From the NCBI GenBank assembly GCA_003551425.1, contig PUMP01000048.1, positions 2,825 through 66,824 of the forward strand: a stretch of DNA of 64,000 bases, written 5' to 3'. The position numbers were made by a program, and so were the translations under genes. The DNA comes from Candidatus Nealsonbacteria bacterium. Lineage in GTDB: Bacteria > Patescibacteriota > Minisyncoccia > Minisyncoccales > PWPS01. Positions 4,149 to 53,319 of the stretch are shown piece by piece. The notes beneath the pieces are model-generated. The model was not told the origin of the DNA. It made no database searches and saw nothing but the letters and a program-made list of their open reading frames with translations. How positions within the stretch are numbered: position 1 is the stretch's first letter; every line of letters begins with the position of its first letter.

Positions 4149-5285
4149 ATGCGCCAAAAGATACTTAAAATATTTCCTCTCTTCGTAGTATTGTTTCTTG
4201 TCTTTGTTCCTTTTTCTTTTGTGCAAGGAGAAACAGAAGAGAAAGAAGAAATAACAGTATATTTCTTTGAAGACAGACTTTGTCCGGTTTGCCGGGATCA
4301 GAAAGAATTCATGGAGTCTATAAAAGACGATTATCCGCAAATGGAGCTAAAGATTTATCCGATTAGTGATTTTGATAAGCTGGAAGAAGTTGCCGCAATG
4401 CATGGAGTGGAAGATCCGGAAATAATGGCACCAACTACTTTTATTGGTGAAAATTACTTTCAATTTTCTCATTTTACGGAAGATCACAAAGAGAGGATTA
4501 TAAAAGCATTGGAAGGGGAGATAGTGGACGAGGACTGTTGTATGGTGCGTATTCCGGTGCTGAATATGGAGGTGGATATAAGCCAGTGGTCTCTTCCTCT
4601 TATAACGGTAATGCTCGGATCCTTGGATGGATTCAATGTTTGCTCTATCGGTGCGCTTATTTTGATACTTTCTATCGTGCTTGTTTTCAAGTCAAGGAAA
4701 AAGATTTTCTTTTACGGAGGGCTTTTCATTTTCACCACGGTTGCGGTTTATGGAGCTTTGGTGTTTTTATGGGGGCAATTGTTTAGAGCATTGATCGGAC
4801 ACTCCGAAATACTTAGTTATATTGTGGGGGCAGCAGCTTTCTTCGGAGGAGTTTACTTTTTTAAAGAGTTTTACCGTTTTTTCAGATATGGTCCAACCTG
4901 TGAATCTTCAAGCAATAAATTTGCAATTAAAGCAACAAAGAAAGTCCAAGAAGCTTTTGCGGATTCAAAAAGGGGAGCGCTTGCCTTAGCGGGAAGTATT
5001 ATATTTTTTGCTGCAGTGATAACTATTGTTGAGCTGCCGTGTTCCGTAGGAATTCCGATTGCGTTTACGGGGGTCTTAATAGAAGCAGGCGTTTCTCTTA
5101 CTACCTTTATTTCTTATGTTCTTCTTTATCTCTTCTTCTATATGCTTATTGAGATTATTATTTTCACGGGAGCGGTGCTGACAAGAGAGATTTGGATTGC
5201 AAACTCAAGGGCGATTACATGGGTAACTTTGTTTGGTTCTTTAGTATTATTTTATCTGGCTTATTATTATATTTTCGGACTTTAA
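4149..5285 (+). CDS. thioredoxin-like domain fused to CcdA/DsbD-type transmembrane disulfide transporter
   Basis: Signal peptide, then CPVCRDQ (CxxC) Trx-like domain, then a polytopic membrane domain. The membrane domain has two intramembrane Cys (NVCSIGA and ELPCSVGIP) as in the CcdA/DsbD beta core. Confidence 0.6.
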   Translation: MRQKILKIFPLFVVLFLVFVPFSFVQGETEEKEEITVYFFEDRLCPVCRDQKEFMESIKDDYPQMELKIYPISDFDKLEEVAAMHGVEDPEIMAPTTFIGENYFQFSHFTEDHKERIIKALEGEIVDEDCCMVRIPVLNMEVDISQWSLPLITVMLGSLDGFNVCSIGALILILSIVLVFKSRKKIFFYGGLFIFTTVAVYGALVFLWGQLFRALIGHSEILSYIVGAAAFFGGVYFFKEFYRFFRYGPTCESSSNKFAIKATKKVQEAFADSKRGALALAGSIIFFAAVITIVELPCSVGIPIAFTGVLIEAGVSLTTFISYVLLYLFFYMLIEIIIFTGAVLTREIWIANSRAITWVTLFGSLVLFYLAYYYIFGL

Positions 5286-5913: not shown

Positions 5914-6612
5914 ATGTCGGTCTTTACGCAGAAAACATTTCTCTTTCTTTCTTTTATAGTAATATTATTAGTGGTAATAATGTTTTTTGTGCTAGGCCAA
6001 GAAAATAATAACAATTATATGGAGAATAATATTAAATTGCCTGAACCTTCCACAGAAGGAGAAGTGTCTCTTGAAGAGGCGATTTCAAAAAGAAGGTCGG
6101 TAAGAAGTTACAAAGAAGAACCGTTAAATATACGGGAATTATCCCAGATTCTTTGGGCCTCTCAAGGAATAACTAACTCTGATCTCAGAGCAGCACCATC
6201 CGCTGGGGCGCTTTATCCTTTATCTATTTATGTTGTTGCCGAGAACGTTGAAAATCTTACTTCGGGAATATATCAGTACTTAGTTCAGGAGCATAGATTA
6301 AAACCCATAAAGAAGGGAAGTTTTAAAGATGAACTTTATCAGAGTGCTTTAAGGCAATCTTCAATCAAAGAAAGCTCTTTGATAGTAATAATTACAGGTG
6401 ACTATGATATTACGGAAAAAGTATACGGAGAGCGGGCTAAAAGGTATGTCCATATGGAGGCCGGACATGTCGGGCAGAATATATATTTACAAGCGGAAAC
6501 CCTTGGCCTTGGTACGGTGGCCATTGGTGCTTTTAACGATGAAGAAATAAAAGAAACAATTGCTCTAGAAAAAGAAGTCCCACTTTATATTTTTCCGATA
6601 GTAAGAAAGTAG
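5914..6612 (+). CDS. nitroreductase-family (SagB-type dehydrogenase-like) protein with N-terminal TM
   Basis: RRSVRSY...AAPSAGALYP...EAGHVGQN motifs are typical of the nitroreductase/NADH oxidase fold. Confidence 0.65.
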   Translation: MSVFTQKTFLFLSFIVILLVVIMFFVLGQENNNNYMENNIKLPEPSTEGEVSLEEAISKRRSVRSYKEEPLNIRELSQILWASQGITNSDLRAAPSAGALYPLSIYVVAENVENLTSGIYQYLVQEHRLKPIKKGSFKDELYQSALRQSSIKESSLIVIITGDYDITEKVYGERAKRYVHMEAGHVGQNIYLQAETLGLGTVAIGAFNDEEIKETIALEKEVPLYIFPIVRK

Positions 6613-6623
6613 TTTTTTAAAAC

Positions 6624-6652
6624 TAAAAACACCGAGCTTGTCGGTGTTTTTA
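6624..6652. terminator. bidirectional intrinsic terminator between convergent genes
   Basis: aaaaACACCGAGCttgtCGGTGTtttt hairpin flanked by A/T runs on both sides. Confidence 0.6.
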
Positions 6653-6671
6653 ATTGAATTTCTGTAAGGCT

Positions 6672-6944
6672 TTACTTAACCAAGTTCTTCAAAGCTTGCC
6701 CAGGTTTGAATTTCGGAACTTTTGAAGCAGCAATTTTAATCTTCTCTTTGGTTCTCGGATTAATTCCTTGGCGTGCTTTTCTTTTAGCAACGGAAAAAGT
6801 TCCAAATCCGGTAAGAGTTACATCCTTACCTTTTTTCAGAGATCCACTGATTTCATCTAAGATGGTGTTGAGACTTTCTCTGGCAGCACTCTTGGAAACT
6901 TTCATTTTTTTGGCTAATTTTTCGACAAGTTCTTCTTTTTTCAT
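6672..6944 (-). CDS. hup: DNA-binding protein HU
   Basis: 90 aa; MKKEELVEKLAKK...GFGTFSV..R.AR.GINPRT is the HU/IHF signature. Confidence 0.85.
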   Translation of the reverse strand: MKKEELVEKLAKKMKVSKSAARESLNTILDEISGSLKKGKDVTLTGFGTFSVAKRKARQGINPRTKEKIKIAASKVPKFKPGQALKNLVK

Positions 6945-7144
6945 AAATCAATTATTTTATTAAAATTAATCGACCTTTATGTTGCCTTATTATAACAACG
7001 TTTCTTATTCTTTTTCAATACTTTTAAAATATCACTTTTTTATTATCATATCAAGCAATTGCATTCATCTTGTAAAGCTCATTGCTTGATAACGTGCTTA
7101 TGTTATGATTATCTAATAATAATTGTCAAAAAATTATAGAGTAA

Positions 7145-9163
7145 ATGCTTGAATTCACCTCCTTTTTCATTGTCATCATTACAGCGCTTGTTTTTTCGCA
7201 AGTTTTCGGACGTTTTCACGTTCCTTGGATAATTGCCCTTATTGTAGGAGGAATGATAGTGGGTCCGCACGGTTTTGATATTGTAACTCCCGATATCACC
7301 TTGGAGTTTTTTAAGAATTTGGGACTCGTTTTTTTGATGTTTATGGCCGGGCTTCATATACGTTTTTCCGGCATGAAGCTTGTCTTGAAAGAATCTTTTT
7401 TGATTGCTGGCATGGCGGGAGCTATTTCTTTTGTGACCGGAACAGGGGTAGGGCTTTTACTTGGCTACGATATAGCGGTTTCCATCTTGCTTGGAATAAT
7501 CTTTATCTCTTCATCTATCGCCGTTCTTATCCCTTTTCTTGAAAAGAGAGGTCTTATTCATTCACGCCTTGGGCGTACGGTGGTTTCGGCGATCATGATT
7601 CAAGATATTGTGAGCTTGATCTTTCTTGCCATAGCCTTGCAGTATCTTTTTGCTACTACGGCCCTTCCCTTACCTCTGTTTCTTCTTATCTTCATAATCA
7701 CTCTCTTTGTAATAGGAATTGTAAAGTGGGGGATTCCTCACCTGAAAAAAAGCCTTTATCATCCGGAAGAAAAGCAGGGCGATGTCTTTGAAAAAGATCT
7801 TCGTCTTGTTTTTGCTGTTTTAGTGGGAATGGTACTTATTTCAGAAGCACTAGGACTACACTCTATCATCGGTGCTTTCTTTGCCGGGATTGTTTTGTCG
7901 GAGGCTATTACGGGAACAACCTTAAAGGAGAAGATACATGTTTTGGCTTATGGGCTTTTTATCCCCATTTTCTTCGTTGTGCTTGGGATGCAAACCAATC
8001 CAATGATCTTTTTGGAGGCAAGAGAGGGGATTGTGCTGCTTCTTGTAATTGTTTCAGCATCTATGGTCTCTAAATTTGCGGGAGGATGGATTTCTTCTCG
8101 TTTAGCTGGCTTTACCAATCTTCAGAGCGTTTTCATAGGGGGAAGCGGAATTCCTCAACTTTCCACCACTCTTGCGGTAGTTGCGGTTGGGCAACACCTT
8201 AATATTATTGGAGATGAATTAATAACGGCACTTATTTTTCTAAGCATTATTACGACCTTTGTGGGACCTTCTTTGTCCGGGTATATCTTCGGAAAGGCCA
8301 AAAAAGAGCATCTTATGGAAAACTATAAGATGTACTTTTCGCCTCGTATCTCCAGAGAGTTTGCCAGACAAGAGCAAAACGAAAAGAATTTCCAGGTAGC
8401 GGAAATTATCGACAGAATAGTTATGAAAGAGATAGAGAATATTTCTGCTCCGCTTTATGTTGCCGAGCTTGGCGGAGGAGCACACCCTGACAGATATCAC
8501 AATCTCTTCAACAGACTTCTTAAAGAAAAAAGAAGCTATATTGATTGGGTGGATGCATCTTCGGAGATGCTAAAGCTTGCTAAAGAGTATATCTCTAACC
8601 CGGACTATGAAGAACGTAAAAGTGTTCTTTCCTTTAAAAATAAGGAAATAACAGAGTATTTATATGATCTTGAAGACGAAACTCTTGATGTTGCGATAAT
8701 GAAATATGTGATTGATCACATGAAAGATTTAGATGAACTTTTTTCCCTTCTTTCATCAAAGCTTAAAAGAGAGGGTAAGTTTATCGCTACAATTAATACG
8801 AATCCGGAATTAAAAAGTATTTCTACAAATGCTCGCTATCTTTATCAAGGTGAAGAATTTCCAGAGAACGAGACCAAAACACTTAAAGATGGAGATGTTG
8901 TTACAGTTAAGTTTTTTAAAGAATCCGGGAATCCGGAGTCCGGATACATTGAAGGTTCGGAAATATTGAGATATTTCCACTCTGCAGAAAAGATAAAAGA
9001 ATTGGCATCTCGGCATAATTTTGACATTTTCCTTGGTGATTGGAGAGAAATTGTCCCTGAAGAGAAAGAAGAAAATATTTTTGAAACGAGTCAAGAAGTC
9101 TTAATTTTAACAAATAAAAAAAACGAAAAAGATAATTTTAGCCACAACCTCCCCTTATCGTAA
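7145..9163 (+). CDS. cation:proton antiporter (Na+/H+ exchanger/CPA family) fused to C-terminal class-I SAM methyltransferase-like domain
   Basis: The N-terminal ~390 aa form a polytopic CPA-type membrane domain. The C-terminal ~280 aa form a Rossmann domain with MTase motif I-like ELGGGAHPD and motif II-like DVAIMKYVIDH. Confidence 0.65.
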   Translation: MLEFTSFFIVIITALVFSQVFGRFHVPWIIALIVGGMIVGPHGFDIVTPDITLEFFKNLGLVFLMFMAGLHIRFSGMKLVLKESFLIAGMAGAISFVTGTGVGLLLGYDIAVSILLGIIFISSSIAVLIPFLEKRGLIHSRLGRTVVSAIMIQDIVSLIFLAIALQYLFATTALPLPLFLLIFIITLFVIGIVKWGIPHLKKSLYHPEEKQGDVFEKDLRLVFAVLVGMVLISEALGLHSIIGAFFAGIVLSEAITGTTLKEKIHVLAYGLFIPIFFVVLGMQTNPMIFLEAREGIVLLLVIVSASMVSKFAGGWISSRLAGFTNLQSVFIGGSGIPQLSTTLAVVAVGQHLNIIGDELITALIFLSIITTFVGPSLSGYIFGKAKKEHLMENYKMYFSPRISREFARQEQNEKNFQVAEIIDRIVMKEIENISAPLYVAELGGGAHPDRYHNLFNRLLKEKRSYIDWVDASSEMLKLAKEYISNPDYEERKSVLSFKNKEITEYLYDLEDETLDVAIMKYVIDHMKDLDELFSLLSSKLKREGKFIATINTNPELKSISTNARYLYQGEEFPENETKTLKDGDVVTVKFFKESGNPESGYIEGSEILRYFHSAEKIKELASRHNFDIFLGDWREIVPEEKEENIFETSQEVLILTNKKNEKDNFSHNLPLS

Positions 9164-9164
9164 A

Positions 9165-9365
9165 AAAATATTTGCTTCCTATGCCTTTTGAGACGAAAGG
9201 AAGTAACAAAGCCCGGAAGAACCGGTCAAAGAGTTGGCGAAATTAAAGGTAGAAGCGACATAGTGACAATATTGTTATCGGCTTTGATTCTGTTGGACTT
9301 TCTAAGGGAAAAATATTAGAAAAACCGAGATCAAAGAAAGAAGCCTTTAAGAGATTGCAATAAGA
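9165..9365 (+). pseudogene. decayed fragment of a maf paralogue (frameshifted, internal stops)
   Basis: Its translation in shifting frames matches the intact Maf at 48272..48853. Examples: KIF-A-S-Y-AF-ETKGSN..PEEPVKELAKLKVEA.. versus ELVKELAKLKAEA, and IVIGFDSVG..KILEKPRSKKEAFKRLQ. Confidence 0.5.
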
Positions 9366-9415
9366 GCTTTACTTTTTAATGATAGTTATTATAATAAAAA
9401 AAGGAGGTGTGAAAA

Positions 9416-9514
9416 ATGAAGTTCTTTGGAATATTGTTTGTCGTGCTCATTATAGTGTGTGGTATAATCTCCATTTTGGGAGCAACAGGGCTCTTGAAGC
9501 CTTTGCTGTTCTAA
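9416..9514 (+). CDS. small hydrophobic peptide (32 aa, MKFFGILFVVLIIVCGIISILGATGLLKPLLF)
   Basis: A consensus SD (AAGGAGGTG) sits 8 nt upstream of the ATG. One predicted TM helix. A hairpin follows. Confidence 0.4.
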   Translation: MKFFGILFVVLIIVCGIISILGATGLLKPLLF

Positions 9515-9712
9515 AGAGAGGGAAGATTCATTCTTCCCTCTTAAGCTTTTCTAAGCACCAAAATGACATTGACTACCAAGGGTTGACCCTTGGTAAATAA
9601 TGGAGTTGTTCTTTTATTTGTTCGGAAAAATGTGCTTTTGAGACTACTTTTCCCAAGGGTCAACCCTTGGGTGTAGCTTGTGAAATGGTTGTTCTCTGTT
9701 AAAATAAAAGTA

Positions 9713-10843
9713 ATGGAACCTTTAGCCTCAAAAATAAGGCCGAAGAGCTTAAAGGAGTTCGTGGGACAGAATCATTTAGCCGGAGAAGGGAAGCCTTTAA
9801 ATGTTGCTATAGAAAAGAAGCACTTGTTCTCTTTTATTCTTTGGGGGCCTCCGGGAACGGGGAAAACAACCTTGGCAAAAATATATGCCGATAGTTTGAA
9901 TGCCAAGTTTTATGAGTTGTCTGCGGTCTCCGTCGGCAAAGAGGACATTAGAAAGGTAATCAGAGAAGACATAAAAGATTATCCCAAGGTCTTGTTCTTA
10001 GATGAGATACATCGCTTTAATAAAGCTCAGCAGGATTTTTTGCTTCCTTATGTGGAGCGGGGAGATATAGCTTTAATCGGAGCTACTACGGAGAATCCGA
10101 GTTTTGAAGTAATTGCCCCTTTGCTTTCTCGTTGTCGGGTTTTTGTTTTGTATGAACTTTCGAAAGAGGAGATAGAAACAATTATCAAGCGAACCGGATT
10201 TAAGATTGGTAAGAAAGCCGTAAATTGGCTTATTAACATGGCAAACGGAGATGCAAGGCAAGCCATTACTATGCTTGATAACACAAGCAAGCTTTACAAA
10301 AATATTACGGTAGAGAATCTAAAGAATACTTTGCAATCGAAGTTCTTAAGGTATGATAAAGCGGGGGAGGAGCACTACAATACGATATCGGCTTTTATAA
10401 AAAGTATGAGAGCCGGTCAGCCGGATGCCGCTTTATATTACTTGGCCAGAATGATTGATTCCGGAGAAGATCCGAAGTTTATTGCCAGAAGAATGGTGAT
10501 TTTTGCTTCTGAGGATATTGGACTAGCACAACCAACAGCGCTGGTTGTGGCTAACGCGGCGTTTAGAGCAGTGGAAACCATTGGGTTGCCGGAGTGCGGT
10601 ATTAATCTGGCCCACGGAGTCACTTATCTTTGCCGGTGCAAGAAAGACAGAAGCTCGTATGATGCGTATATGAAAGCGATGGAAGATGTAAAAAGATACG
10701 GAAACTTGCCTGTTCCTTTAAAGTTGAGGAATCCGGAAACAAAATTAATGGAAGAGATGGACTATGGGAAAGAGTACGAGAAGTATCCTAAAGAGAGCTA
10801 TCTTCCCGATAAATTAAAAAAAAGGAGGTATTTAAGTTTATGA
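9713..10843 (+). CDS. rarA: replication-associated recombination protein A (AAA+ ATPase MgsA/RarA)
   Basis: LASKIRPKSL..FVGQ.HL, then Walker A GPPGTGKTT, then the MgsA C-terminal helical domain. It could start at GTG 9680 instead. Confidence 0.85.
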   Translation: MEPLASKIRPKSLKEFVGQNHLAGEGKPLNVAIEKKHLFSFILWGPPGTGKTTLAKIYADSLNAKFYELSAVSVGKEDIRKVIREDIKDYPKVLFLDEIHRFNKAQQDFLLPYVERGDIALIGATTENPSFEVIAPLLSRCRVFVLYELSKEEIETIIKRTGFKIGKKAVNWLINMANGDARQAITMLDNTSKLYKNITVENLKNTLQSKFLRYDKAGEEHYNTISAFIKSMRAGQPDAALYYLARMIDSGEDPKFIARRMVIFASEDIGLAQPTALVVANAAFRAVETIGLPECGINLAHGVTYLCRCKKDRSSYDAYMKAMEDVKRYGNLPVPLKLRNPETKLMEEMDYGKEYEKYPKESYLPDKLKKRRYLSL

Positions 10844-11685
10844 ATGTCATAATTCCCAATCCTAAAGAGTTTGAGCATTTAAAGACCGAGTTTCGGAAGT
10901 CGGGAGCTGAAAAGATACACATCTTATCGGACTTTGACAGAACCCTTACTTACGGAACCTTTGAAGGAGGAAAAGCTTCTTCTCTTATGTCCATACTAAG
11001 GAACGGTGATTACTTAAAAGAGGGTTACGCGGAAAAGGCTCATGCTCTTTTTGATAAATATCGCCCCATCGAAACAGATCCCGGCATTTCTGTGGAGGAG
11101 AAGAAGAGGTTAATGCAAGAGTGGTGGAAAGCGCATTACAGACTGCTTATAGAGTCCGGGTTATCCAAATCGGACTTAGAGAGTGTCGCTGAAAAAATTT
11201 ATGTTAGGATAAGGGAGGGTGTTTCTGAGTTTTTGGACATTATCCATGAAAAAAACATTCCATTGGTTATTTTTTCCGCAAGTGGTTGCGGGGAAGTGAT
11301 TCCGATGCTTTTTCGGAAGATGGGAAAAGACTACCCGAACATCTTTTATGTAATCAATATTTTTAACTGGGATGAAGAAGGAAAAGCCGTTTCCGTGAGA
11401 GAGCCGATTATTCATAGCATGAACAAAGACGAAACGGTTCTGAAAAAATTCCCTTCCATTTTTAACTCCATAAAAAACAGAGACAATGTTGTTTTGCTTG
11501 GAGACAACGTAGGTGATTTGGGAATGATTAAAGGCTTCGATTGTGAGAATTTATTAAAGATAGGGTTTTACAATTTTCCTCAAGAAGAGCCAAGGCACGA
11601 TTACGAGGAAGGTTTCGATGTAGTTCTGGAGGGAGACGGTGATTTTAGTTTTGTAAGCTCTTTGCTTCGAGAGTTGACGAAATGA
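10840..11685 (+). CDS. HAD-superfamily pyrimidine 5'-nucleotidase (UMPH-1/cytosolic 5'-nucleotidase III-like)
   Basis: HAD motif I DFDRTLT, a central cap domain, and the LLGDNVGD motif. A strong SD is present. Its start overlaps the rarA stop (ATGA). Confidence 0.65.
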   Translation: MNVIIPNPKEFEHLKTEFRKSGAEKIHILSDFDRTLTYGTFEGGKASSLMSILRNGDYLKEGYAEKAHALFDKYRPIETDPGISVEEKKRLMQEWWKAHYRLLIESGLSKSDLESVAEKIYVRIREGVSEFLDIIHEKNIPLVIFSASGCGEVIPMLFRKMGKDYPNIFYVINIFNWDEEGKAVSVREPIIHSMNKDETVLKKFPSIFNSIKNRDNVVLLGDNVGDLGMIKGFDCENLLKIGFYNFPQEEPRHDYEEGFDVVLEGDGDFSFVSSLLRELTK

Positions 11686-11710
11686 TCTTTATAAAGGAGG
11701 AGATGAAAAA

Positions 11711-34853: not shown

Positions 34854-36501
34854 AGGGCGTTTTTATTTCGTTGTTGTCTTAATGACACTTATGTCAGCTG
34901 TTCTTTGCTGGCGTCTTTTTAATATTCAGGTTTTAAAAAGTGGGGAGTGGAGCGCGCAAGCTCAGGGACAACAGAGATATTTTACTCAGGACGAAGGAGA
35001 AAGAGGATCAATTTATTTACAAAATGTAAATGGCAACCAAATTCCGGTTGCTATAAACAGAAAGATTGTACATGCTTATATCTCTCCCCGTGAGATTGAA
35101 GAAAAAGAAGATCTTGCGCTAAAGCTTTCCAATGCTTTGGAAGTTGAAAAAGAAGAAATATTGGAGAAGATGGATCGCGACTCCTCTTATGAAATAATAA
35201 AAAGGGAACTAAGCAAAGAAGAGATATTGGAAATAAATGAAATTTCCAAAGCCTATCTGGAAGAAGATATTAAAAGATATTATCCGGAAAACGATTTTAG
35301 CTCCCATGTTCTTGGGTTTATAGGAGGAGAAAGAAAAGGCCAGTATGGAGTAGAGCAATATTATGAAGAGATTTTACGAGGAAGAGTAGGAATAAGAGAG
35401 GGGAGTAGAGGCTCCTGGGGATCTCTTATTACAAGAGATTCCATAAAAAGGGGGGAAGATATCTCTTTGACCGTAGACTATAATATTCAACATTTTGTAG
35501 AGAAGGCTCTTCTTGACGCTCATGAGGATTTTAATATTACGGGTGGAAGCATTATCGTGGGAGATCCAAACGACGGAAAGATTATTGCCATGGCAAGTTT
35601 TCCTTCTTTTGATCCTAATAATTATCGTGAAAACAGCAGCTACGAAGTATTAAAAAATCCAGTAGTACAAAAAACTTTTGAGCCGGGATCCGTTTTTAAG
35701 CCGATTACCATGGTTGCCGCTCTGGAAGAAGGGGCGATAGACCCCGACGAAACCTATAACGATACGGGAGAAAAAAGAGTCCACGGAAGGGTTATACGCA
35801 ATTATGGACAACGATCTTACGGTGAAGTTACGATGAAGGAAATCATGGAGAGATCAATCAATACGGGAATTGTTTATGTAAAAGACAGGATTGGGAACGA
35901 ACTTTTTGAGGAGTATATTGAAAAATTTGGATTCTTTGATTTTACGGGAATTGATTTACACGGCGAAGTTCTTTCTGAAAACAGAAGTTTTAAAGAGGGA
36001 TATGATATAAATTACGCGAATGCTTCTTTTGGGCAAGGAATAGAAGTTACTCCTATTCAGTTTTTTCGGGCTTTTTCTGTTATTGCCAATGGCGGAAGGC
36101 TGGTAAACCCCTATATTGTACAAGGAATGGAAACACCTGAAGGAGAAAGGATTATTTCTTCTTCTGCAGCCACTCAAATGACGTCCATATTGGTTGGAAC
36201 CATAGAGGATGGATTTGGAGCTTCGGCAAAGGTTCCGGGCTATCATGTTGCCGGAAAAACGGGAACTTCACAAATTTCTTGGTCTGATCTTGGTATAAGC
36301 AAAAGAGGATATTCTCCGGAGACCATTCAAGCGTTTGCCGGATATGTTCCCGCGTATGATCCCCAATTTTTAATTATGGTTAAGCTTGATAGGCCGCAAG
36401 CGCGTACTGCAGAAGTTTCTGCCGCACCTATTTTTAGAAAAGTTGCGGAATACGTTCTTGATTATAATCAAGTACCCCCTGATTATGAAATAGAAAAATG
36501 A
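34825..36501 (+). CDS. ftsI: penicillin-binding protein 2/FtsI (transpeptidase)
   Basis: N-terminal TM and PBP dimer domain. Transpeptidase motifs SVFKP (SxxK), SINTG (SxN) and KTGTS (KTG). It may start at the internal Met (34846). Confidence 0.85.
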   Translation: MEQKLWFMNKGRFYFVVVLMTLMSAVLCWRLFNIQVLKSGEWSAQAQGQQRYFTQDEGERGSIYLQNVNGNQIPVAINRKIVHAYISPREIEEKEDLALKLSNALEVEKEEILEKMDRDSSYEIIKRELSKEEILEINEISKAYLEEDIKRYYPENDFSSHVLGFIGGERKGQYGVEQYYEEILRGRVGIREGSRGSWGSLITRDSIKRGEDISLTVDYNIQHFVEKALLDAHEDFNITGGSIIVGDPNDGKIIAMASFPSFDPNNYRENSSYEVLKNPVVQKTFEPGSVFKPITMVAALEEGAIDPDETYNDTGEKRVHGRVIRNYGQRSYGEVTMKEIMERSINTGIVYVKDRIGNELFEEYIEKFGFFDFTGIDLHGEVLSENRSFKEGYDINYANASFGQGIEVTPIQFFRAFSVIANGGRLVNPYIVQGMETPEGERIISSSAATQMTSILVGTIEDGFGASAKVPGYHVAGKTGTSQISWSDLGISKRGYSPETIQAFAGYVPAYDPQFLIMVKLDRPQARTAEVSAAPIFRKVAEYVLDYNQVPPDYEIEK

Positions 36502-37100: not shown

Positions 37101-37125
37101 AATTTTGTTACTATCTTCTAAGTAA

Positions 37126-37201
37126 GGCCCCATCGTCTAGTGGCTTAGGACGCCGGGTTCTCAGTCCGGTAACACGGGTTCAAATCCCGTTGGGGTCACC
37201 A
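37126..37201 (+). tRNA. tRNA-Glu (anticodon CUC)
   Basis: Resembles bacterial tRNA-Glu (GGCCCCATCGTCTAGTGGCTTAGGAC...GGTTCAAATCC...CCA). Anticodon loop is TTCTCAG. Confidence 0.8.
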
Positions 37202-37220
37202 AAGTAAATTTAAAGAAATA

Positions 37221-39262: not shown

Positions 39263-39321
39263 GGTTTCTTTGATATAATAAACTAAAGGTCGTTATTGTT
39301 AAAATAAGTGCTTATATATAA

Positions 39322-40610: not shown

Positions 40611-40626
40611 TTTTTCGGTGAAAAAG

Positions 40627-40953: not shown

Positions 40954-40961
40954 AACTTTTG

Positions 40962-46096: not shown

Positions 46097-46169
46097 TGCG
46101 GGATGGTGTAATTGGTAACACGCCACGCTTTGGACGTGGAGTTTCCAGGTTCGAGTCCTGGTCCCGCAG
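46097..46169 (+). tRNA. tRNA-Gln (anticodon UUG)
   Basis: Acceptor TGCGGGA/TCCCGCA, D-stem GTGT/ACAC, anticodon stem CCACG/CGTGG with loop CTTTGGA, T-arm CCAGG-TTCGAGT-CCTGG. Confidence 0.75.
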
Positions 46170-46188
46170 CAAAGGGTAAGAGCGAAAA

Positions 46189-46217
46189 TTCTCGATAGGC
46201 TATCGAGATTTTTTTTA
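46189..46217 (+). terminator. intrinsic terminator after tRNA-Gln
   Basis: CTCGATAggcTATCGAG followed by ATTTTTTTTAT. Confidence 0.6.
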
Positions 46218-46236
46218 TGTGTTATAATGAATAAAT

Positions 46237-47160
46237 ATGAAAAAAATAAAAGACATATTAGACAGTTTTCTAATACAAGCGCAAACTGATAATCTTACAA
46301 CTGGCTCATATCCCAAAGAGTATAATGATTTAAAAATGAAAGTTTCTTTTGGAATGGGGATGCCCGCAAGAGTTCCCTGGGTTGCTTTTATTGTTCCGGA
46401 AATGCAGGTCAGTAAAGGTTTTTATCCTGTTTATTTGTATTATAAGAGCATGAATACTCTTATTCTTGCTTATGGCGTAAGTGAAACATCAGAGTTTGAT
46501 AAAACTTGGCCAGCAGAAATAATGAACTCAACTTCCACCATAGAAGGATTTTTTAATCAAGAAGTTCCCAGATATGGAGATTCTTTTGTTTTTAGAGTTT
46601 ATAAAATTAAAATAGAAAATAGAGAAGTTATTTATTCTTCTGAAGGAAATGAAGATATTTCTAGTCACGATCTCGAATCTGATTTAAATACTATTTTGGA
46701 TTACTACAAGAAAGTTGTTTTAGTTGATGCTAAGGAGAAGAGTTCTGCAATGAGTCAAGGACTATTCTACATGGAGAAACAATTAGAAGATTTTATTATT
46801 CAAAATTGGGAGAATACTGAATTAGGAAAAAAATTTGATTTAATAATTGAAGATGGAGAACTAGTAAGCCAACAGTATAGAACTGATATTGGACAGATAG
46901 ATATATTAGCAAAAGAAAGAGGAAAAGAAGGCTTTGTTGTTATTGAACTAAAGAAAGATCAGACAAGTGATGATACTATAGGACAATTGGCTCGTTATAT
47001 GGGTTGGGTCAAAAGACACAAGAGAGACGAGGGAGTGAAAGGAGTCGTTATTGCTGGACATTATGACAAAAAACTAGACTATGCTCAAGAGATGATGCCA
47101 AATATAGAAGTTTTTCTATATGAGGTAGATTTTAAACTTAAAAAATTTGGGGAAAATTAG
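46237..47160 (+). CDS. MrcB_N (DUF3578)-like N-terminal domain fused to DUF91/NucS-like PD-(D/E)XK nuclease; putative modification-dependent (type IV-like) restriction enzyme
   Basis: The N-terminus (ILDSFL..A.T.NL.TGSYPKEY..L.MKVSFGMG..ARVPWVAFI...SKGFYPVYLYY) matches the McrB N-terminal domain family pattern. The C-terminus (LEDFIIQNWE...IDILAKERGKEGFVVIELKKD...DTIGQLARYMGWV) matches the DUF91/NucS nuclease (D...ELK). Confidence 0.55.
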   Translation: MKKIKDILDSFLIQAQTDNLTTGSYPKEYNDLKMKVSFGMGMPARVPWVAFIVPEMQVSKGFYPVYLYYKSMNTLILAYGVSETSEFDKTWPAEIMNSTSTIEGFFNQEVPRYGDSFVFRVYKIKIENREVIYSSEGNEDISSHDLESDLNTILDYYKKVVLVDAKEKSSAMSQGLFYMEKQLEDFIIQNWENTELGKKFDLIIEDGELVSQQYRTDIGQIDILAKERGKEGFVVIELKKDQTSDDTIGQLARYMGWVKRHKRDEGVKGVVIAGHYDKKLDYAQEMMPNIEVFLYEVDFKLKKFGEN

Positions 47161-47269
47161 CTCTCTTCTAGTCGAAGAACTTGGCTTTTTAAAAATTATT
47201 TATAGCAAATTGCAGCCCTAAGTTTGTCCACTGTGGTCAATATGTTTAAATTCAGAAAACCATAAAGAT

Positions 47270-47806
47270 ATGCCCTATTTTGCAATTTTTATATTGATTA
47301 TTTTTTCTATACCGGCTGTAATCTTGATTTTTACTTTTTTTATATTGATTTCAAATTTTGTTAGAGAAAAAGAGAAAAAAGAAATTTTGCTCCCTTACAG
47401 AAAAAGAAACTCTCTACTATCGTTTCAAGAAAAAAAATTTTATAAAGTAATAGATAAAATAGCAGAAGACAATAATTATTTATTGTTTACAAAGGTGAGA
47501 TTGGAAGATTTATTTTGGATTCCAAAAAACATCTCTTCAAAAGAAAGATTTGGTTTGCGTAATAGAATTAAGTCTCGTCATGTTGATTTTTTGATTTGTA
47601 ATAAGGATAAAATTACTCCAATTTTAGGAATAGAGCTTGACGATTGGAGCCATGCAAGTCGTAAAGCAAAAGAAAAAGACAAATTTATTAATAAAGTTTT
47701 TACTAGCGCAAAACTTCCACTTTTAAGAATTGAAACCCAAAAATTCTACAACCCAGAATTAATTCTTGAAGAAATCAAAAACAAGACGGTAAAAACCAAA
47801 AAATAA
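47270..47806 (+). CDS. DUF2726-domain protein (restriction-endonuclease-like fold) with N-terminal TM
   Basis: EKKFYKVI....NNYLLFTKVRL....HVDFLIC.KD...ILGIELDDWSH....KDKFINKVF..AKLPLLRI matches the DUF2726 pattern. Confidence 0.5.
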   Translation: MPYFAIFILIIFSIPAVILIFTFFILISNFVREKEKKEILLPYRKRNSLLSFQEKKFYKVIDKIAEDNNYLLFTKVRLEDLFWIPKNISSKERFGLRNRIKSRHVDFLICNKDKITPILGIELDDWSHASRKAKEKDKFINKVFTSAKLPLLRIETQKFYNPELILEEIKNKTVKTKK

Positions 47807-47829
47807 AAACAATTAAAAAATAAAAAATT

Positions 47830-48090
47830 ATGGCATTAGTAAATTGTTCTGACTGCGGAAAAGAAATATCAGATAATGCAATAAAATGTGGTAATTGTGG
47901 AAATCAAAATACACCGGGGGAAAAGGGGGAAGAAAAAGAGCTTAAATCGAATATGACGAAACTTGCAGTTCTTTTTTCCATCCCTTTTTCATTAATTCTT
48001 ATTTTTTTGGCCTTACTTACTGGAGATTTTTTAATAATAGTGTTTGCAATTATTTTCGTAATAGGATTAATTATTATTGCAGCAAAATAA
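47830..48090 (+). CDS. zinc-ribbon (CxxC...CxxC) small membrane protein
   Basis: MALVNCSDCGKEISDNAIKCGNCGN followed by a C-terminal TM helix. Confidence 0.5.
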   Translation: MALVNCSDCGKEISDNAIKCGNCGNQNTPGEKGEEKELKSNMTKLAVLFSIPFSLILIFLALLTGDFLIIVFAIIFVIGLIIIAAK

Positions 48091-48220
48091 ACGAAGAAAA
48101 AATTAAAGAAATAAAAAAATAAACGATAATACTCTTTTGGTTGAGGAAATTTTTAAAGTGTTATGGTTCTAGCATCGTTCACTGTAGCCAGCATTCTTGT
48201 GCTAGTGACCGAGACGGGTA

Positions 48221-48255
48221 AGCCCTGAGATTTATTTTCAGGGTTTTTGTTTTAT
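48221..48255 (+). terminator. intrinsic terminator
   Basis: CCCTGAGAtttattTTCAGGG followed by TTTTTGTTTTAT. Confidence 0.6.
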
Positions 48256-48271
48256 GGTAAAATAAAATAAT

Positions 48272-48853
48272 ATGGCAAAAATAATACTGGCGACAACTTC
48301 TCCTTATCGAAAAAAGATATTTGAGACCTTAGGGATTCCTTTTGAAGTAGAGGGGAGCAATGTTGATGAATCGCAACTGGAAAGAAATAATCCGGAAGAA
48401 TTGGTTAAAGAGCTGGCAAAGCTGAAAGCGGAAGCAGTCGCTAGAAACCATAATGATGCCATTGTAATTGGATTTGATTCGGTTGGATACTTTAACGGAA
48501 AATTTCTTGAAAAACCAAAATCAAAAGAAGAGGCGTTTGAGAGACTGCAGTCTCTTTCGGGAGGAAACCATCAGCACTATACTGGAATTTATATAATAAA
48601 CACAAAGTCCGATAAAACGATTTCCGGCGTTGATAAGGCTGATATTTTCATGCGGGATTATTCGGACAAGGAGATAGAAGAATATCTTAAGCAGGGTTCC
48701 GAATTTAACCGCTTTGCGCTCGGGTACGACACAGAAAAGCAGATCAGCGCCTCATTTATTCAAAAGATAGAAGGAAATCATCTTAATTTAAAAGGCATTC
48801 CTTTGTCGGTCTTGGTCGAGATGTTAAGAGAAATCGGATATAAACAACAATAA
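48272..48853 (+). CDS. maf: Maf-family nucleoside triphosphate pyrophosphatase
   Basis: ILATTSPYRK..F..LGIPFEV, VIGFDSV, and the C-terminal GYD pattern of Maf/YhdE. Confidence 0.85.
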   Translation: MAKIILATTSPYRKKIFETLGIPFEVEGSNVDESQLERNNPEELVKELAKLKAEAVARNHNDAIVIGFDSVGYFNGKFLEKPKSKEEAFERLQSLSGGNHQHYTGIYIINTKSDKTISGVDKADIFMRDYSDKEIEEYLKQGSEFNRFALGYDTEKQISASFIQKIEGNHLNLKGIPLSVLVEMLREIGYKQQ

Positions 48854-48887
48854 TATAATTTAGTTGTGAATACTTGTATTGCAAAAA

Positions 48888-48914
48888 AACAGCCGAGGAG
48901 AGCCTCGGTTTTTG
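48888..48914 (+). terminator. intrinsic terminator
   Basis: CCGAGGagagCCTCGG followed by TTTTTG. Confidence 0.55.
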
Positions 48915-48995
48915 CTTAATAAGTAGATTTGGGGTAGAATATAGAAGATAATTAAACATATTTATGGGAGAAATAAAAAATAATAATTTATAAAT

Positions 48996-49454
48996 ATGGA
49001 TGATGAAATTACAATTTTAGAACTTAAAAAAATATTGCAGAAATTTAAAGAAGATAGAAACTGGGGGCAATTTCATGATCCTAAAAATTTAGCTGAAGCC
49101 ATATCAATCGAAGCAGGGGAATTACAAGAAAAATTTCTTTGGAGAACAGTTCCCGGAATTTTGGAAAAGTTGAAAAATGATAAAGAGTATAAAAAAGAGG
49201 TAGAAGATGAGTTCGCAGATATAGTAATATTTTGTTTAAATTTTGCAAATGCTACTGACATAGATATCTCTAAGGTGATAAAAGAAAAAATTAAAAAAAA
49301 CAATAAAAAATATCCCCCGGAAAAGGCAATGGGTGTTTCTGAAAAGTATAATAAACTATTATTGTTTATCAATCTACAAAAAAGGGTTTCAGTGAAGATG
49401 TTATTACTAATAGAATTGAAGAAGCAATTCTTGATATTTTTCAAAAAAAAATAG
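48996..49454 (+). CDS. MazG-like nucleotide pyrophosphohydrolase (all-alpha NTP-PPase)
   Basis: R.WGQFHDPKNLA.AISIEAGEL.E.F.W......E......EVEDEFADIVIF matches the small MazG/YpjD-type core. The metal-binding E..E and E..D residues are present. Confidence 0.6.
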   Translation: MDDEITILELKKILQKFKEDRNWGQFHDPKNLAEAISIEAGELQEKFLWRTVPGILEKLKNDKEYKKEVEDEFADIVIFCLNFANATDIDISKVIKEKIKKNNKKYPPEKAMGVSEKYNKLLLFINLQKRVSVKMLLLIELKKQFLIFFKKK

Positions 49455-49498
49455 GGAGGAGCACCTCTCCTGGTGAAGTTAATGCCTGGAAGAATTCC

Positions 49499-51211
49499 AT
49501 GATGTATATGGAAAACGTACTAAAAGATAATGAAATTCCAGAAGATTGTGGGGTTATGATTGAGTATCAGATACCTCAAACCGCGAAAAGAATAGATTTT
49601 ATATTAACTGGTCAAAATGATAAAAAAATTGATCATGCGGTTATTGTAGAGCTTAAACAATGGGAGTTTGCGGAAATAACAGAGATGGATGGTATTGTTT
49701 CCACTTTTGTAGGCAAAGCTATTCGGCCAGAACCACACCCCTCTTATCAGGCCTGGTCTTATGCTTCACTTTTAAATAATTTTAATGAGGCTGTTTATAG
49801 TGGCAATATTCAACTAAAACCCTGTGCTTATCTTCACAATTATAAAGAGCGAGATGCAATAGTAGATAATTTTTATAGCGAATATATTAAAAAAGCACCC
49901 CTTTTTTTAAGAAATGATTCATTAAAATTACGTTCATTTATTAAGAGATTTGTTAAGTATGGAGATAAGGGAAAAGTTATGTACGAAATTGAGAGTGGGA
50001 GAATAAGACCATCTAAGGGTCTTGCAGATAGTTTAGAAGGTATGTTAAGGGGAAACCAAGAGTTTGTAATGGTTGATGATCAGAAAATAGTTTATGAGAG
50101 GGCGTTACATTTAGCAAAGAAATCGAGTGATAGAAACAAGAAAGTCTTTATTATTGAGGGAGGTCCAGGCACGGGAAAATCTGTGGTAGCGATAAATTTA
50201 TTAGTTGAACTAACAAAACAAAAATTAGTAACACAGTATGTTTCAAAAAATGCAGCGCCCCGAACTGTTTATTGTAATAAGCTTACAGGCAAACACAAAA
50301 AAACGGAAATAGCAAATTTGTTTACGGGATCTGGTAGTTTTGTAAATGCAGAGGAAAATGTTTTTGATACTTTAATAGTAGATGAAGCTCATAGGCTGAA
50401 TGAAAGATCAGGACTATATGCTAATCTCGGAGAAAACCAGATAAAAGAACTGATTAACGCAGCAAAATGTACTGTCTTTTTTATTGACGAGGATCAAAAA
50501 GTGACTTTTAAGGACATCGGAGAAAAAGAAGAGATAATAAAGTGGGCAAAAATGCAAGGCGCCGACATTTACGAAGATAGTTTAGTGTCACAATTTAGGT
50601 GTAATGGATCGGATGGATATTTGGCTTGGCTTGATAATGCCTTACAAATTAGAGAGACTGCAAATAAGACACTTCAAGGTATAAATTTTGATTTTCGTAT
50701 TGTAGACTCCCCAAACAAACTCAGAGATTTGATTTTTGAAAAAAATAAAATAAACAATAAAGCAAGGTTGGTGGCAGGTTATTGCTGGGACTGGATAAGT
50801 AAAAAGGACAAAAACCTGCATGACATAGAATTTCCAGAATATAATTTTAGAATGAAATGGAACTTAGCTACAGAGGGAAGTCTTTGGATTGTATCGCCAA
50901 AATCAATCAATGAAGTTGGTTGTATTCATACTTGTCAAGGATTAGAGCTTGATTATATTGGAGTTATTGTAGGAAAAGATATGATTGTAAGAGATGGAGA
51001 GGTTTTAGTTGATCCAAGAGAGCGGGCTAAGACAGATGCTTCATTAAAAGGTTATAAAAAATTATTAGAAGAAGATGAAAAAGCTACGAAAGAAAAAGTA
51101 AGAAAAATAATCAAAAATACTTATCGAACCTTAATGACACGAGGAATGAAGGGGTGTTATGTCTATTTTGTGGATAAAGAAACAGAAGATTATTTTCGAA
51201 GTAGTGTTTAA
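49499..51211 (+). CDS. DUF2075-type protein: N-terminal PD-(D/E)XK nuclease-like domain + SF1 helicase/ATPase (Schlafen-like)
   Basis: The N-terminus (RIDFILTGQ...AVIVELKQW) is D...ELK. Walker A GGPGTGKS; DEAH-like IVDEAHRL; C-terminal GCIHTCQGLELDYIGVIVG resembles UvrD_C_2/motif VI. It starts 45 bp downstream of the MazG-like gene. Confidence 0.65.
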   Translation: MMYMENVLKDNEIPEDCGVMIEYQIPQTAKRIDFILTGQNDKKIDHAVIVELKQWEFAEITEMDGIVSTFVGKAIRPEPHPSYQAWSYASLLNNFNEAVYSGNIQLKPCAYLHNYKERDAIVDNFYSEYIKKAPLFLRNDSLKLRSFIKRFVKYGDKGKVMYEIESGRIRPSKGLADSLEGMLRGNQEFVMVDDQKIVYERALHLAKKSSDRNKKVFIIEGGPGTGKSVVAINLLVELTKQKLVTQYVSKNAAPRTVYCNKLTGKHKKTEIANLFTGSGSFVNAEENVFDTLIVDEAHRLNERSGLYANLGENQIKELINAAKCTVFFIDEDQKVTFKDIGEKEEIIKWAKMQGADIYEDSLVSQFRCNGSDGYLAWLDNALQIRETANKTLQGINFDFRIVDSPNKLRDLIFEKNKINNKARLVAGYCWDWISKKDKNLHDIEFPEYNFRMKWNLATEGSLWIVSPKSINEVGCIHTCQGLELDYIGVIVGKDMIVRDGEVLVDPRERAKTDASLKGYKKLLEEDEKATKEKVRKIIKNTYRTLMTRGMKGCYVYFVDKETEDYFRSSV

Positions 51212-51273
51212 ATAATTTAATATCAATGATAATGAAGGATATATTATCATATAAGGATATTAATAAATAAAAT

Positions 51274-51402
51274 ATGAAAAAAATAGTTCTATTAGTTATA
51301 TTTTTATTGATAGCGGGAGGTGGTTTTTTCTTCTATAGATCACATAATTACTGCAACAGGATGTATTGCAAAGCCGTAAAAAGCCCTAGAATTAAACTAT
51401 AA
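51274..51402 (+). CDS. possible small membrane peptide (42 aa, [21 protein letters not shown]...)
   Basis: Short ORF with one TM helix; weak ribosome-binding context. Confidence 0.2.
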
Positions 51403-51404
51403 AT

Positions 51405-52034
51405 ATGAACAATAAATTTTACTCTCTACCGGATTTACCCTACGGTTATAAAGATTTAGAGCCCTATATCTCGGAAGAGCAACTAAGTATTCATCATCAA
51501 AAACATCACCAAGCATACGTAAATGGTGCTAACACTGTTTTTGAAAGATTGGAAAAATCTAGGAAAGAGGGGAGTGATCTGGACATGAAAGCGACTCTCA
51601 AAGAGCTGTCCTTTCATGTAAGCGGTCATGTTTTACACTCTCTTTTTTGGCAAAATATGGCTTCTTCAAAAAAAGAAGGTGGAGGAGAGCCCTCCGGTCG
51701 GCTTGGAGAAATAATAAACGATGAATTTGGGAGCTTTGACAGATTCAAGCAAGAATTCACTAAAGCCGCCATCTCTATTGAAGGTTCCGGATGGGTAGCT
51801 TTAACACTGGACAAGGAAAGTGGAAGACCGATGATAATGCAAATTGAAAAGCATAATTTAAATTTGTATCCCGGATTTTCCCTTTTATTGGTATTTGATT
51901 TTTGGGAACACGCTTATTACCTGGATTACAAAAACGAGAAAAATAAGTTTATTGAAGCTTTTTGGCAGATTGTTAATTGGGAGGCCGCTGATAAGAGATT
52001 AAACAGATTCGACGACAAACTTGCACACTCTTAA
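51405..52034 (+). CDS. sodA: Fe/Mn superoxide dismutase
   Basis: LP.L.Y....LEP.IS......HH.KHH..YV N-terminus, and the D....WEHAYY C-terminal metal-binding motif. Confidence 0.85.
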
Positions 52035-52068
52035 TCTTGTAAAAGCCGGAAGAAGAACAAAAACAAAA

Positions 52069-53319
52069 CTAAATTCTCTCCAGTATCTCCTTAATAGTTT
52101 TCATTTTTTTGTTCTCCAGGTCTTCCTCTTTTATATTTTGAGAAACAAAAAGAGCGGTAAGAGGCTTTGTTTCTTTTCTCTTGTATTTACCGGGATAAGT
52201 ACTCTCCAAGTCTTTTTCCAAAATAAAGATCTCTCTTTTCTTTAGTTCTTCTATTTTATTATTCATACCGGTTTTCTTTCCGAAGGAGGGAAACTTTTTA
52301 ATCTTTTGAAGAGAGCTTGAGTTTAAAGCGTCACGATCGAGCATTACCGCGTAAGGAATTTGAAAGGTTTCACAAAGACTGGCGTAAATATCTACAGATC
52401 CCTTTCCACTCGTATATACAACCTTTATGTTCTTATTTTTTCTATAGAAACGGTTGATCATTTCTCGCATAAAGATGCGGTCGGAAACTCCCTCTACAAG
52501 AAGCACTTTGTCTGAGAAAAGCATTCCGGAGTTATCGTCATTGATCTCTTGTATAAAGCGCGTTATATCCACCTTTTTCTTGGAGAAACCGCAGAGAGAA
52601 GTGCTTCCTTCTTCATTTCTGAAAATACGCCATGTCTTGGGGAGGTATTTTGCTTGCACGAAAGTAGGATGATGAGTGGTAAGAAAGATTTGTTTTTTTA
52701 ATTTTTTTTCGTTTAAAATACTAAGAAACTTTTTTATCACGGAAGGATGAAGATCGATGGAAGGTTCGTCTATAAGAATTACCTTATACTGAGGGTGGAA
52801 GATATAAAAAAGGATTACGAAAAGACGCTTGAATCCGGAACCTATTCTTTTTGCCGATCTTTCTTTCTTGTCGGCATATACATTGGAGAGAAAAAGCTTT
52901 TCGCTTATCTCTACGTCCCTGAAGTTTCTTCTCAAAGAAGAGGAAAACTCTTTATAGTCCTGAGGATAATCTTTTTTAAAGCTCTTTATTTTCTTTGCTA
53001 CTTGATAATAATCTTGAGAGCTGTCGATTCTGATAAAATACTTTCTAAAATCTTGATCGGAAGAGGAATATTGACCGTGCCGATAGGAAAGGTTGTGATC
53101 TTTGCCTTTGTGGGTTAAAATGAGTTCAAGATCGGCGTCTTTGTCAGAAAATCTTTCCGGATCGGTATTATCATCGAAAAAAAGATGAATAGCGTCAAGG
53201 ATGTTCGTTTTTCCGGCATTATTGGACCCTACAAGAATTTGAAAGTCAGAGATTTCCCTAATGTGCATGGCATCTTTAATGCTTTTGTAGTGATTTATGG
53301 TTATTTCTTTTATTTTCAT
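52069..53319 (-). CDS. OLD-family (overcoming lysogenization defect) ATPase-Toprim nuclease / fused PARIS(AriAB)-like
   Basis: The N-terminus is IKEITINHYKSI...ILVGSNNAGKTNILDAI (ABC-type Walker A). Walker B is ILIDEPSIDLHP. The C-terminal Toprim has LLVEGVSD and ...MLDRD. Confidence 0.65.
   Translation of the reverse strand: MKIKEITINHYKSIKDAMHIREISDFQILVGSNNAGKTNILDAIHLFFDDNTDPERFSDKDADLELILTHKGKDHNLSYRHGQYSSSDQDFRKYFIRIDSSQDYYQVAKKIKSFKKDYPQDYKEFSSSLRRNFRDVEISEKLFLSNVYADKKERSAKRIGSGFKRLFVILFYIFHPQYKVILIDEPSIDLHPSVIKKFLSILNEKKLKKQIFLTTHHPTFVQAKYLPKTWRIFRNEEGSTSLCGFSKKKVDITRFIQEINDDNSGMLFSDKVLLVEGVSDRIFMREMINRFYRKNKNIKVVYTSGKGSVDIYASLCETFQIPYAVMLDRDALNSSSLQKIKKFPSFGKKTGMNNKIEELKKREIFILEKDLESTYPGKYKRKETKPLTALFVSQNIKEEDLENKKMKTIKEILERI

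Follow-up and report, generated by a model that had tools for sequence, protein, structure and literature searches.

A maf remnant at a probable ancestral site and an intact maf of a sister lineage in a Candidatus Nealsonbacteria contig

Two maf sequences lie on one contig of a Candidatus Nealsonbacteria genome, within a stretch of 64,000 nucleotides that is referred to here as the window: an unreadable remnant at 9.1 kb and an intact gene at 48 kb. The two are homologous and are not each other's closest relatives; the first carries several lesions and is syntenic with a functional maf in a relative, and the second lies in a variable block whose boundaries can be read from the same relative. 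The history that probably accounts for them is one in which the original maf decayed at its ancestral site and a maf of a sister lineage, likely acquired laterally, took over at a tRNA-Gln hotspot. The case is a well-known phenomenon, an ordinary pseudogene combined with a gene displacement, that happens to be cleanly documented.

The remnant at 9.1 kb and the ancestral maf site

The nearest genome found is the metagenome-assembled genome (MAG) Candidatus Nealsonbacteria CSSed10_344R1, contig PWNV01000020.1 (hereafter PWNV), which enters the comparison as two loci, L003 with the antiporter gene and maf, and L011 with DnaX and tRNA-Gln. Its identity to the window is 79% for the antiporter-methyltransferase (antiporter-MT) protein, 82% for DnaX and about 74-75% for core DNA, and the best named homologues of the intact Maf and of DnaX come from Parcubacteria, Minisyncoccales and Nealsonbacteria. 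The features around the remnant are as follows.

6620..6978, minus strand: HU gene block (blastn to L003 10587-10947, 79%)
7145..9163, plus strand: Na+/H+ exchanger fused to a SAM-methyltransferase domain, 672 aa (Pfam Na_H_Exchanger 1.8e-63, Methyltransf_11/31)
9123..9361, plus strand: maf remnant (pseudogene), homologous to maf nt 1-280 (codons 1-93)
9123..9163, plus strand: still-coding part of the remnant, which supplies, in a different frame, the final 13 codons and stop of the antiporter-MT gene
9362..11690, plus strand: segment that PWNV lacks here; it begins at the very point where maf homology ends

Comparison of window 9101-9420 with the intact maf by blastn gave two colinear HSPs, the first joining window 9128-9174 to maf nt 6-52 (81%, E 7e-9) and the second joining window 9213-9359 to maf nt 121-278 (70%, E 2e-16). 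When the Maf protein was searched against the whole 64-kb window by tblastn, the remnant was found in two frames (E 7e-13 and 5e-7), all further matches having E >= 5, the level of chance. The original prediction had described a decayed maf near 9.1 kb with stops and frameshifts, and these searches bear it out, as does the frame-corrected translation (MPFETKGSN, SPEEPVKELAKLKVEA, IVIGFDSVG...ILEKPRSKKEAFKRLQ), which reproduces the peptides quoted at the time. The remnant is real, but the span first assigned to it, 9165-9365, needs correction: it runs from 9123 to 9361, with its start falling within the final 41 nt of the antiporter gene. The proposed nucleotide alignment against 48272-48853 gives significant similarity, although only maf nt 1-280 are covered, to which the 239 nt of the remnant correspond in a four-way alignment.

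The lesions are of several kinds. The start codon has changed from ATG to ACG (9123-9125); deletions have removed 5 nt at 9180/9181, 25 nt at 9207/9208, including the region of the catalytic-motif Glu33, and 11 nt at 9258/9259; internal stops are present; and the 3' half of the gene is gone after codon 93, a loss of 300 nt. Since the start codon, the Glu33 region and the C-terminal half are all missing, the remnant is predicted to be unable to make a Maf. Family homology, an unreadable frame and a location where PWNV has the intact orthologue together mark it as a pseudogene. The source is a MAG contig, so that sequencing or assembly errors or a chimeric contig might be suspected, but five independent lesions that include the 25-nt and 11-nt deletions and the 300-nt loss are atypical of read errors, and both maf loci sit in long blocks colinear with an independent assembly; the chance of such an artefact is next to negligible. 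A 43-aa ORF at 9188-9319 was considered as a gene and rejected, having a TTG start and being out of frame with maf, and Rfam has no match at the remnant.

One part of the remnant has not decayed. The TAA of the antiporter-MT gene at 9161-9163 corresponds to maf nt 39-41, the same position as in PWNV, and identity to L003 is 87.5% over the overlapped 41 nt versus 75.4% downstream. This higher conservation is explained by the fact that the first 41 nt still code for the end of the antiporter-MT protein in another frame, and selection on that C-terminus and its stop codon would have kept them. The other 198 nt are probably an untranslated trailer.

The arrangement in PWNV indicates what the locus once was. 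There, the orthologous Na_H_Exchanger+methyltransferase gene, of 671 aa, shares 41 nt with the intact maf of 193 aa that follows it, and a single blastn HSP (L003 8000-10280 to window 7118-9361, 74.7%) begins in the antiporter promoter region and continues as far as maf nt 280. On a larger scale, colinearity with the PWNV contig extends over window 5.3-21 kb, the genes in common being AAA_28, antiporter-MT, maf, the gene at 11711, Na_Ca_ex, flavodoxin, Pterin_4a, YjbQ and HAMP. A synteny comparison had been suggested as the way to decide which of the two loci is ancestral, and it points to the remnant, which lies at the syntenic maf site of PWNV with the same antiporter overlap. The 9.1-kb locus is accordingly best read as the ancestral maf site, and the pseudogene itself would attest that a functional maf once stood behind the antiporter in the window lineage. 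In two more distant relatives, L010 and L016, maf adjoins homologues of genes that flank the remnant in the window: in L010, Maf is directly followed by UMPH-1, and a homologue of window 4149-5285 is also present (78%, tblastx); in L016, the order is UMPH-1, a 375-aa protein, a 209-aa protein, Maf and a methyltransferase, the 375-aa protein matching window 4149-5285 at 80.5% (tblastn).

The ancestral maf has the Na+/H+ exchanger-methyltransferase gene as its conserved neighbour on the upstream side. Among genome contigs, the protein matched only PWNV and one unrelated archaeon. A first metagenome scan with alignment-derived patterns gave no match, and a second returned L019, whose contig ends inside the gene, and L020. 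In L020, which is more distant (antiporter-MT 71%), there is no maf behind the antiporter gene, so the arrangement is not universal, and the tight overlap appears specific to the lineage of the window and PWNV. The fusion of an exchanger to a C-terminal SAM-methyltransferase is an unusual architecture that is conserved in at least three soda-lake Parcubacteria contigs (window 7145-9163, L003 8026-10041, L020 5986-7977), the methyltransferase part being the element linked to maf.

Just downstream of the remnant, the window and PWNV differ locally. The segment at 9362..11690 contains a 32-aa small ORF (9416-9514), two palindromes, RarA/MgsA (9680-10843) and an HAD-IE/UMPH-1-like 5'-nucleotidase (10840-11685), and PWNV has HU and DUF7352 in its place. 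HU is immediately downstream of maf in PWNV and upstream of the antiporter gene in the window; with its flanks it has switched sides of the antiporter-maf pair, orientation kept. Because maf homology ends exactly where the PWNV-absent segment begins and HU has moved, the truncation coincides with a rearrangement breakpoint, and the HU shift together with 9362-11690 is most simply read as a local rearrangement. The DNA directly after the remnant is AT-rich, with a promoter-like site and a strong Shine-Dalgarno for the 32-aa ORF.

The same two edges bear on another reading, in which the antiporter-MT gene and the first 280 nt of maf were imported from a PWNV-like donor and were never a functional maf in this genome. 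Homology to PWNV does begin at 7118 and end abruptly at 9361, with non-homologous genes on both sides (nitroreductase and the relocated HU upstream, RarA and the nucleotidase downstream). The divergence of the segment from PWNV (74.7%), however, equals that of core blocks (74.7% and 74.0%), with no sign of recent import, the larger-scale gene order is conserved on both sides, and the internal deletions and loss of the start codon indicate decay in place; we regard import as highly improbable.

Some smaller features of this region may be recorded. The 32-aa ORF encodes a hydrophobic product (MKFFGILFVVLIIVCGIISILGATGLLKPLLF), its Shine-Dalgarno is AAGGAGGTG, and it is preceded by a promoter-like site (9368-9395) and followed by a terminator-like hairpin (9516-9542). 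Just 5' of the RarA/MgsA gene, two perfect 18-nt palindromes, 9576-9593 (CCAAGGGTTGACCCTTGG) and 9653-9670 (CCAAGGGTCAACCCTTGG), stand 77 nt apart; they are unique in the window, zero being expected by chance, and may act as paired operators or form a structured element, Rfam giving no match at either. The nitroreductase gene occupies 5914-6612 in the window, where PWNV has a peptide deformylase.

The intact maf and the variable block after tRNA-Gln

The second maf lies 39 kb away, in a block that begins at a tRNA gene.

46097..46170, plus strand: tRNA-Gln(UUG), at whose 3' end PWNV colinearity ends
46171..52069, plus strand: variable block from tRNA-Gln to a conserved OLD-family gene, 5.9 kb
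46237..48090, plus strand: low-GC3 (0.20-0.23) insertion with MrcB_N+NucS-like nuclease, DUF2726 and Zn-ribbon membrane protein
48183..48250, plus strand: conserved block CAGCA(G/T)TCTTGTGCTAGTGACCGAGA with terminator hairpin, ~35-nt conserved core
48272..48853, plus strand: intact maf (193 aa), nucleotide pyrophosphatase (Pfam Maf 5.7e-47)
48996..51211, plus strand: second low-GC3 (0.24-0.27) block with MazG-like protein and PD-(D/E)XK-like + SLFN-g3/DUF2075 helicase

The intact copy is a bona fide Maf, although look-ups of its exact sequence returned no entry. Like the characterised Maf pyrophosphatases (YhdE/YceF, B. subtilis Maf 1EX2; PMC3899018), it scores above the family cutoffs, with 160 bits against Pfam Maf PF02545 (cutoff 27) over profile positions 1-186 of 187 and 141.4 bits against TIGR00172 (cutoff 117.15), and alignment to 1EX2 recovers the S-R-E-K-D-K motif as S10, R13, E33, K52, D69 and K81, the signature catalytic and binding residues of the family (PMC3899018). 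Its subfamily triad is Y12 / S70 / E, the last at the position of B. subtilis Q153, and matches exactly neither the YhdE pattern (R-T-Q) nor the YceF pattern (W-Q-E) (PMC3899018). Y12 and S70 are common to the PWNV Maf and the remnant as well.

The limits of the block are given by the comparison with PWNV. A single HSP joins L011 12-11271 to window 35039-46170 (blastn, 74.7% over 11.3 kb) and ends at the 3' end of tRNA-Gln, and colinearity resumes at L011 17862, window 52070, in the OLD-family gene. The gene order between these points is MrcB_N/NucS-like nuclease, DUF2726, Zn-ribbon protein, maf, MazG-like protein, SLFN/DUF2075 helicase and SOD, so that the neighbours ascribed to the intact maf are confirmed. 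In PWNV, the cargo after tRNA-Gln consists of an HAD hydrolase and glycogen genes. Two further relatives, L014 and L015, keep the left synteny (CysRS, Sm_multidrug_ex, DnaX, tRNA-Gln) with different cargo in each, and in none of the three relatives (PWNV, L014, L015) is there a maf after DnaX-tRNA-Gln. The region after DnaX-tRNA-Gln thus seems to be a recurrent insertion hotspot in this group, and the block, beginning at a tRNA gene and differing in relatives, resembles a tRNA-linked island.

The block is a mosaic. The GC3 of maf (0.376) and SOD (0.362) is within the host range of 0.29-0.43, and that of the five other genes is 0.20-0.27. The conserved TCTTGTGCTAGTGACCGAGA block abuts tRNA-Gln directly in L013 (1700-1765) and in L015 (8966-9000, with a second copy at 11141-11170), and in the window it lies 2.0 kb downstream, just upstream of maf; because this native flank has been displaced from tRNA-Gln, the stretch from 46171 to about 48180 appears to have been inserted between them. 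Together with its host-like GC3, the position of maf right after the native flank suggests that maf is flanked by defence-like insertions and is not their cargo. The original prediction had placed the intact copy inside a defence island, a claim that was overstated for a maf that has host-like GC3, lacks a PADLOC match and adjoins the displaced tRNA-Gln flank.

PADLOC matched the nuclease (PDC-S02, 5e-46), the helicase weakly, and the OLD-like gene, and among the block's proteins it found no match for Maf, the MazG-like protein or DUF2726, so that neither Maf nor the MazG-like protein was recognised as part of an anti-phage system. A search of viral contigs gave no close Maf and one distant SLFN helicase, without a MazG-like or Maf neighbour, and a Ham1 remnant looked for next to the intact maf was not found. 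It is conceivable that the relocated Maf has been recruited beside the MazG-like pyrophosphatase and the nuclease-helicase into an anti-phage module directed at the destruction of modified or phage-specific nucleotides, in which case the loss of the methyltransferase-coupled copy would mark a shift of Maf from RNA-turnover clean-up to defence; we consider this very unlikely.

As in tRNA-adjacent defence islands, the block starts at the 3' end of tRNA-Gln, differs per relative, carries low-GC nuclease and helicase genes with PADLOC candidates, and has its native tRNA flank displaced by insertion. Unlike such islands, it has no integrase domain among its proteins, and a search of 45.9-56 kb for att-like direct repeats of the tRNA-Gln end gave only AT-rich chance families; moreover, maf and SOD are host-like, and the adjoining OLD-family gene, being at the same position in PWNV, belongs to the lineage core and not to the variable cargo.

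Several observations on the block stand apart from the history of maf. Copies of the TCTTGTGCTAGTGACCGAGA block also occur at L014 10659-10703, and inserted genes of 0.4-2.2 kb displace it in the window, L014 and L015, in the last of which it flanks the insert at either end. Ahead of it, at window 48166-48187 and L015 11095-11117, lies another shared block, GCRTCGTTYACTGTRGCCAGC, and the TCTTGTGCTAGTGACCGAGA/GCRTCGTTYACTGTRGCCAGC region might serve as an att-like target or mark where members of an insertion family end; Rfam has no match at this conserved tRNA-flank block. The OLD-family ATPase/TOPRIM gene (PADLOC Old/GajA-like; window 52069-53319 and L011 17861-19111, both minus strand) is followed by the same inositol-phosphatase gene in the window and PWNV, with no GajB-like partner evident. 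In the MazG-like ORF (48996-49454), the domain covers residues 36-121 of 152 and is followed by a hydrophobic low-complexity tail of ~30 aa, so the true stop may be mis-set or a frameshift may be present; the ORF has no NCBIfam or PADLOC match. Finally, directly after tRNA-Gln in L014 (10258-10647), there is a GC-rich, structured-looking stretch of ~130 nt followed by an 85-aa GIY-YIG gene, which might represent a small mobile endonuclease element occupying this hotspot.

How the two copies are related, and the proposed history

Over 239 columns, the remnant is 77.4% identical to the PWNV maf and 71.1% identical to the intact copy, and the flanking coding DNA is no more and no less similar to PWNV than the remnant is (75-77%). 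Where the PWNV maf and the intact copy have different nucleotides, the remnant agrees with PWNV 29 times and with the intact copy 14 times (p = 0.03), and quartet sites favour the grouping (remnant, PWNV)(intact, L001) by 18:6:5. A nucleotide neighbour-joining (NJ) tree of seven sequences (intact, remnant, PWNV [L003], L001, L007, L009 and L010; 1000 bootstraps) separates {intact, L001, L007} from {remnant, PWNV, L009, L010} at 98.6%, or 87.6% without the 40 overlapped nucleotides, and pairs the remnant with PWNV at 85%, or 76.6% without them; the signal for placing the remnant comes from about 240 columns, and its branch is long. At the protein level, the frame-corrected remnant (77 residues) is 77% identical to the intact copy and 75% to the PWNV Maf, a tie among 120 Maf proteins, and the placement therefore relied on the nucleotide analyses. 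The protein NJ tree clusters the intact copy (P0001) with P0002 and P0003 (85% and 83% identity), which sit in Ham1-Maf contexts in other soda-lake Parcubacteria, and this cluster is sister to a clade with the PWNV Maf. The phylogeny that the original prediction had proposed as a check thus groups the intact copy with Ham1-linked maf genes and the remnant with the syntenic PWNV maf.

It had been suggested that the pair arose by duplication followed by decay, that is, by a recent duplication of maf within the genome into the island and subsequent loss of the original. The presence of two maf-homologous sequences on one contig would fit, as would the remnant protein being marginally closest to the intact copy (77% vs 75%). 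Synonymous sites between the copies, however, are saturated (Nei-Gojobori pS 0.81), nucleotide identity is 71% compared with 77% to the PWNV orthologue, and the split that sets the two apart has 98.6% bootstrap, none of which is the pattern of a recent duplicate pair within one genome. In addition, homology of the intact copy to its relatives stops no more than about 10-25 nt from the gene ends, and it has no flank in common with the 9-kb locus. The copies are not closest relatives, and a recent duplication is scarcely credible. The other half of that proposal, that the island copy took over from an ancestral chromosomal one, stands up well, the remnant being syntenic with the PWNV maf and the block of the intact copy being absent in three relatives.

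How long ago the original was lost can be judged from the remnant itself. Between the remnant and PWNV, pS is 0.55 and dN/dS is 0.15, functional pairs having dN/dS of 0.06-0.17. Since these values and the identity to PWNV resemble those of live genes, most of the divergence would have accrued while the gene was functional, and we infer that inactivation was recent relative to the split from PWNV.

Where the intact copy came from is a separate matter. Its lateral origin, like the order of events, is inferred. DnaX has PWNV as its closest relative by far (82%, the next 66%), yet in similarity to the intact copy the PWNV Maf (72%) is surpassed by several other Maf proteins (85, 83, 77, 75% and so on), and this favours a lateral origin. 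Given a host-like GC3 of 0.376 and a lineage belonging to the sister clade, any donor would need to be rather closely related.

A different account is that of ancient paralogy and differential loss, in which the common ancestor had two maf genes, the window lost the antiporter-linked copy and PWNV lost the other. The two maf lineages are indeed sister clades in the protein tree, the composition of the intact maf is host-like, and the gene lies right after the native tRNA-Gln flank, not within the low-GC insertions. On the other hand, maf is absent after DnaX-tRNA-Gln from all three relatives examined, the intact copy finds its nearest homologues in Ham1-Maf contexts, and it is 83-85% identical to Mafs on other contigs, compared with an orthologous distance of about 72-77% at this divergence. 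These genomes are also small, and most bacteria outside Proteobacteria and Planctomycetes have a single maf (PMC3899018). Overall, we think ancient paralogy rather unlikely, though worth keeping in view.

Under the preferred reading, decay of the original and takeover by a sister-lineage maf, the original would have followed the antiporter-methyltransferase gene immediately, with translational overlap, an arrangement that PWNV retains. A second maf would then have arrived at the tRNA-Gln hotspot, most likely by lateral transfer from a related Parcubacterium, and would now supply the Maf nucleotide pyrophosphatase function. The original, made redundant, would have lost its 3' half at the rearrangement breakpoint, through an insertion or replacement that brought in the small ORF, RarA and the HAD-IE nucleotidase and moved HU, and the start-codon mutation and three deletions would have accumulated afterwards. 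The order may also have been the reverse, the original being destroyed first and its loss compensated later.

Relation to known systems

None of the maf findings alters current understanding, and their main practical value is in annotation: there is no gene at 9188-9319, and maf is not defence cargo. Beyond this, the window offers a tidy and datable example of displacement in a streamlined Patescibacterial genome, with the old copy caught mid-decay. It resembles a unitary bacterial pseudogene left by xenologous or paralogous displacement, in that an intact homologue exists elsewhere and the syntenic copy lacks start, frame and 3' half, and small deletions dominate in its decay. It departs from that picture in the preservation of its first 41 nt as the 3' end of the upstream gene, and in its host, a reduced-genome Patescibacterium, a type of genome in which pseudogenes are expected to be short-lived.

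The ancestral locus also has a counterpart in human ASMTL, a Maf-methyltransferase fusion, and in some archaea, where the genes are linked (PMC3899018). The Maf-methyltransferase linkage takes three arrangements here: the antiporter-MT gene overlapping maf in PWNV and the window's ancestor, methyltransferase then Maf in L009, and Maf then methyltransferase in L016. In the window, this coupling appears to be broken.

A 5'-nucleotidase of the HAD-IE/UMPH-1-like type recurs near maf, at window 10840-11685 (1.5 kb from the remnant), L010 1443-2303 and L016 4305-5168. Nucleotidases of the cN-III type act on pyrimidine NMPs and m7GMP, and the recurrent neighbourhood of Maf with a cN-III-like (HAD-IE/UMPH-1) enzyme suggests a two-step disposal of modified nucleotides, from NTP to NMP and on to the nucleoside.
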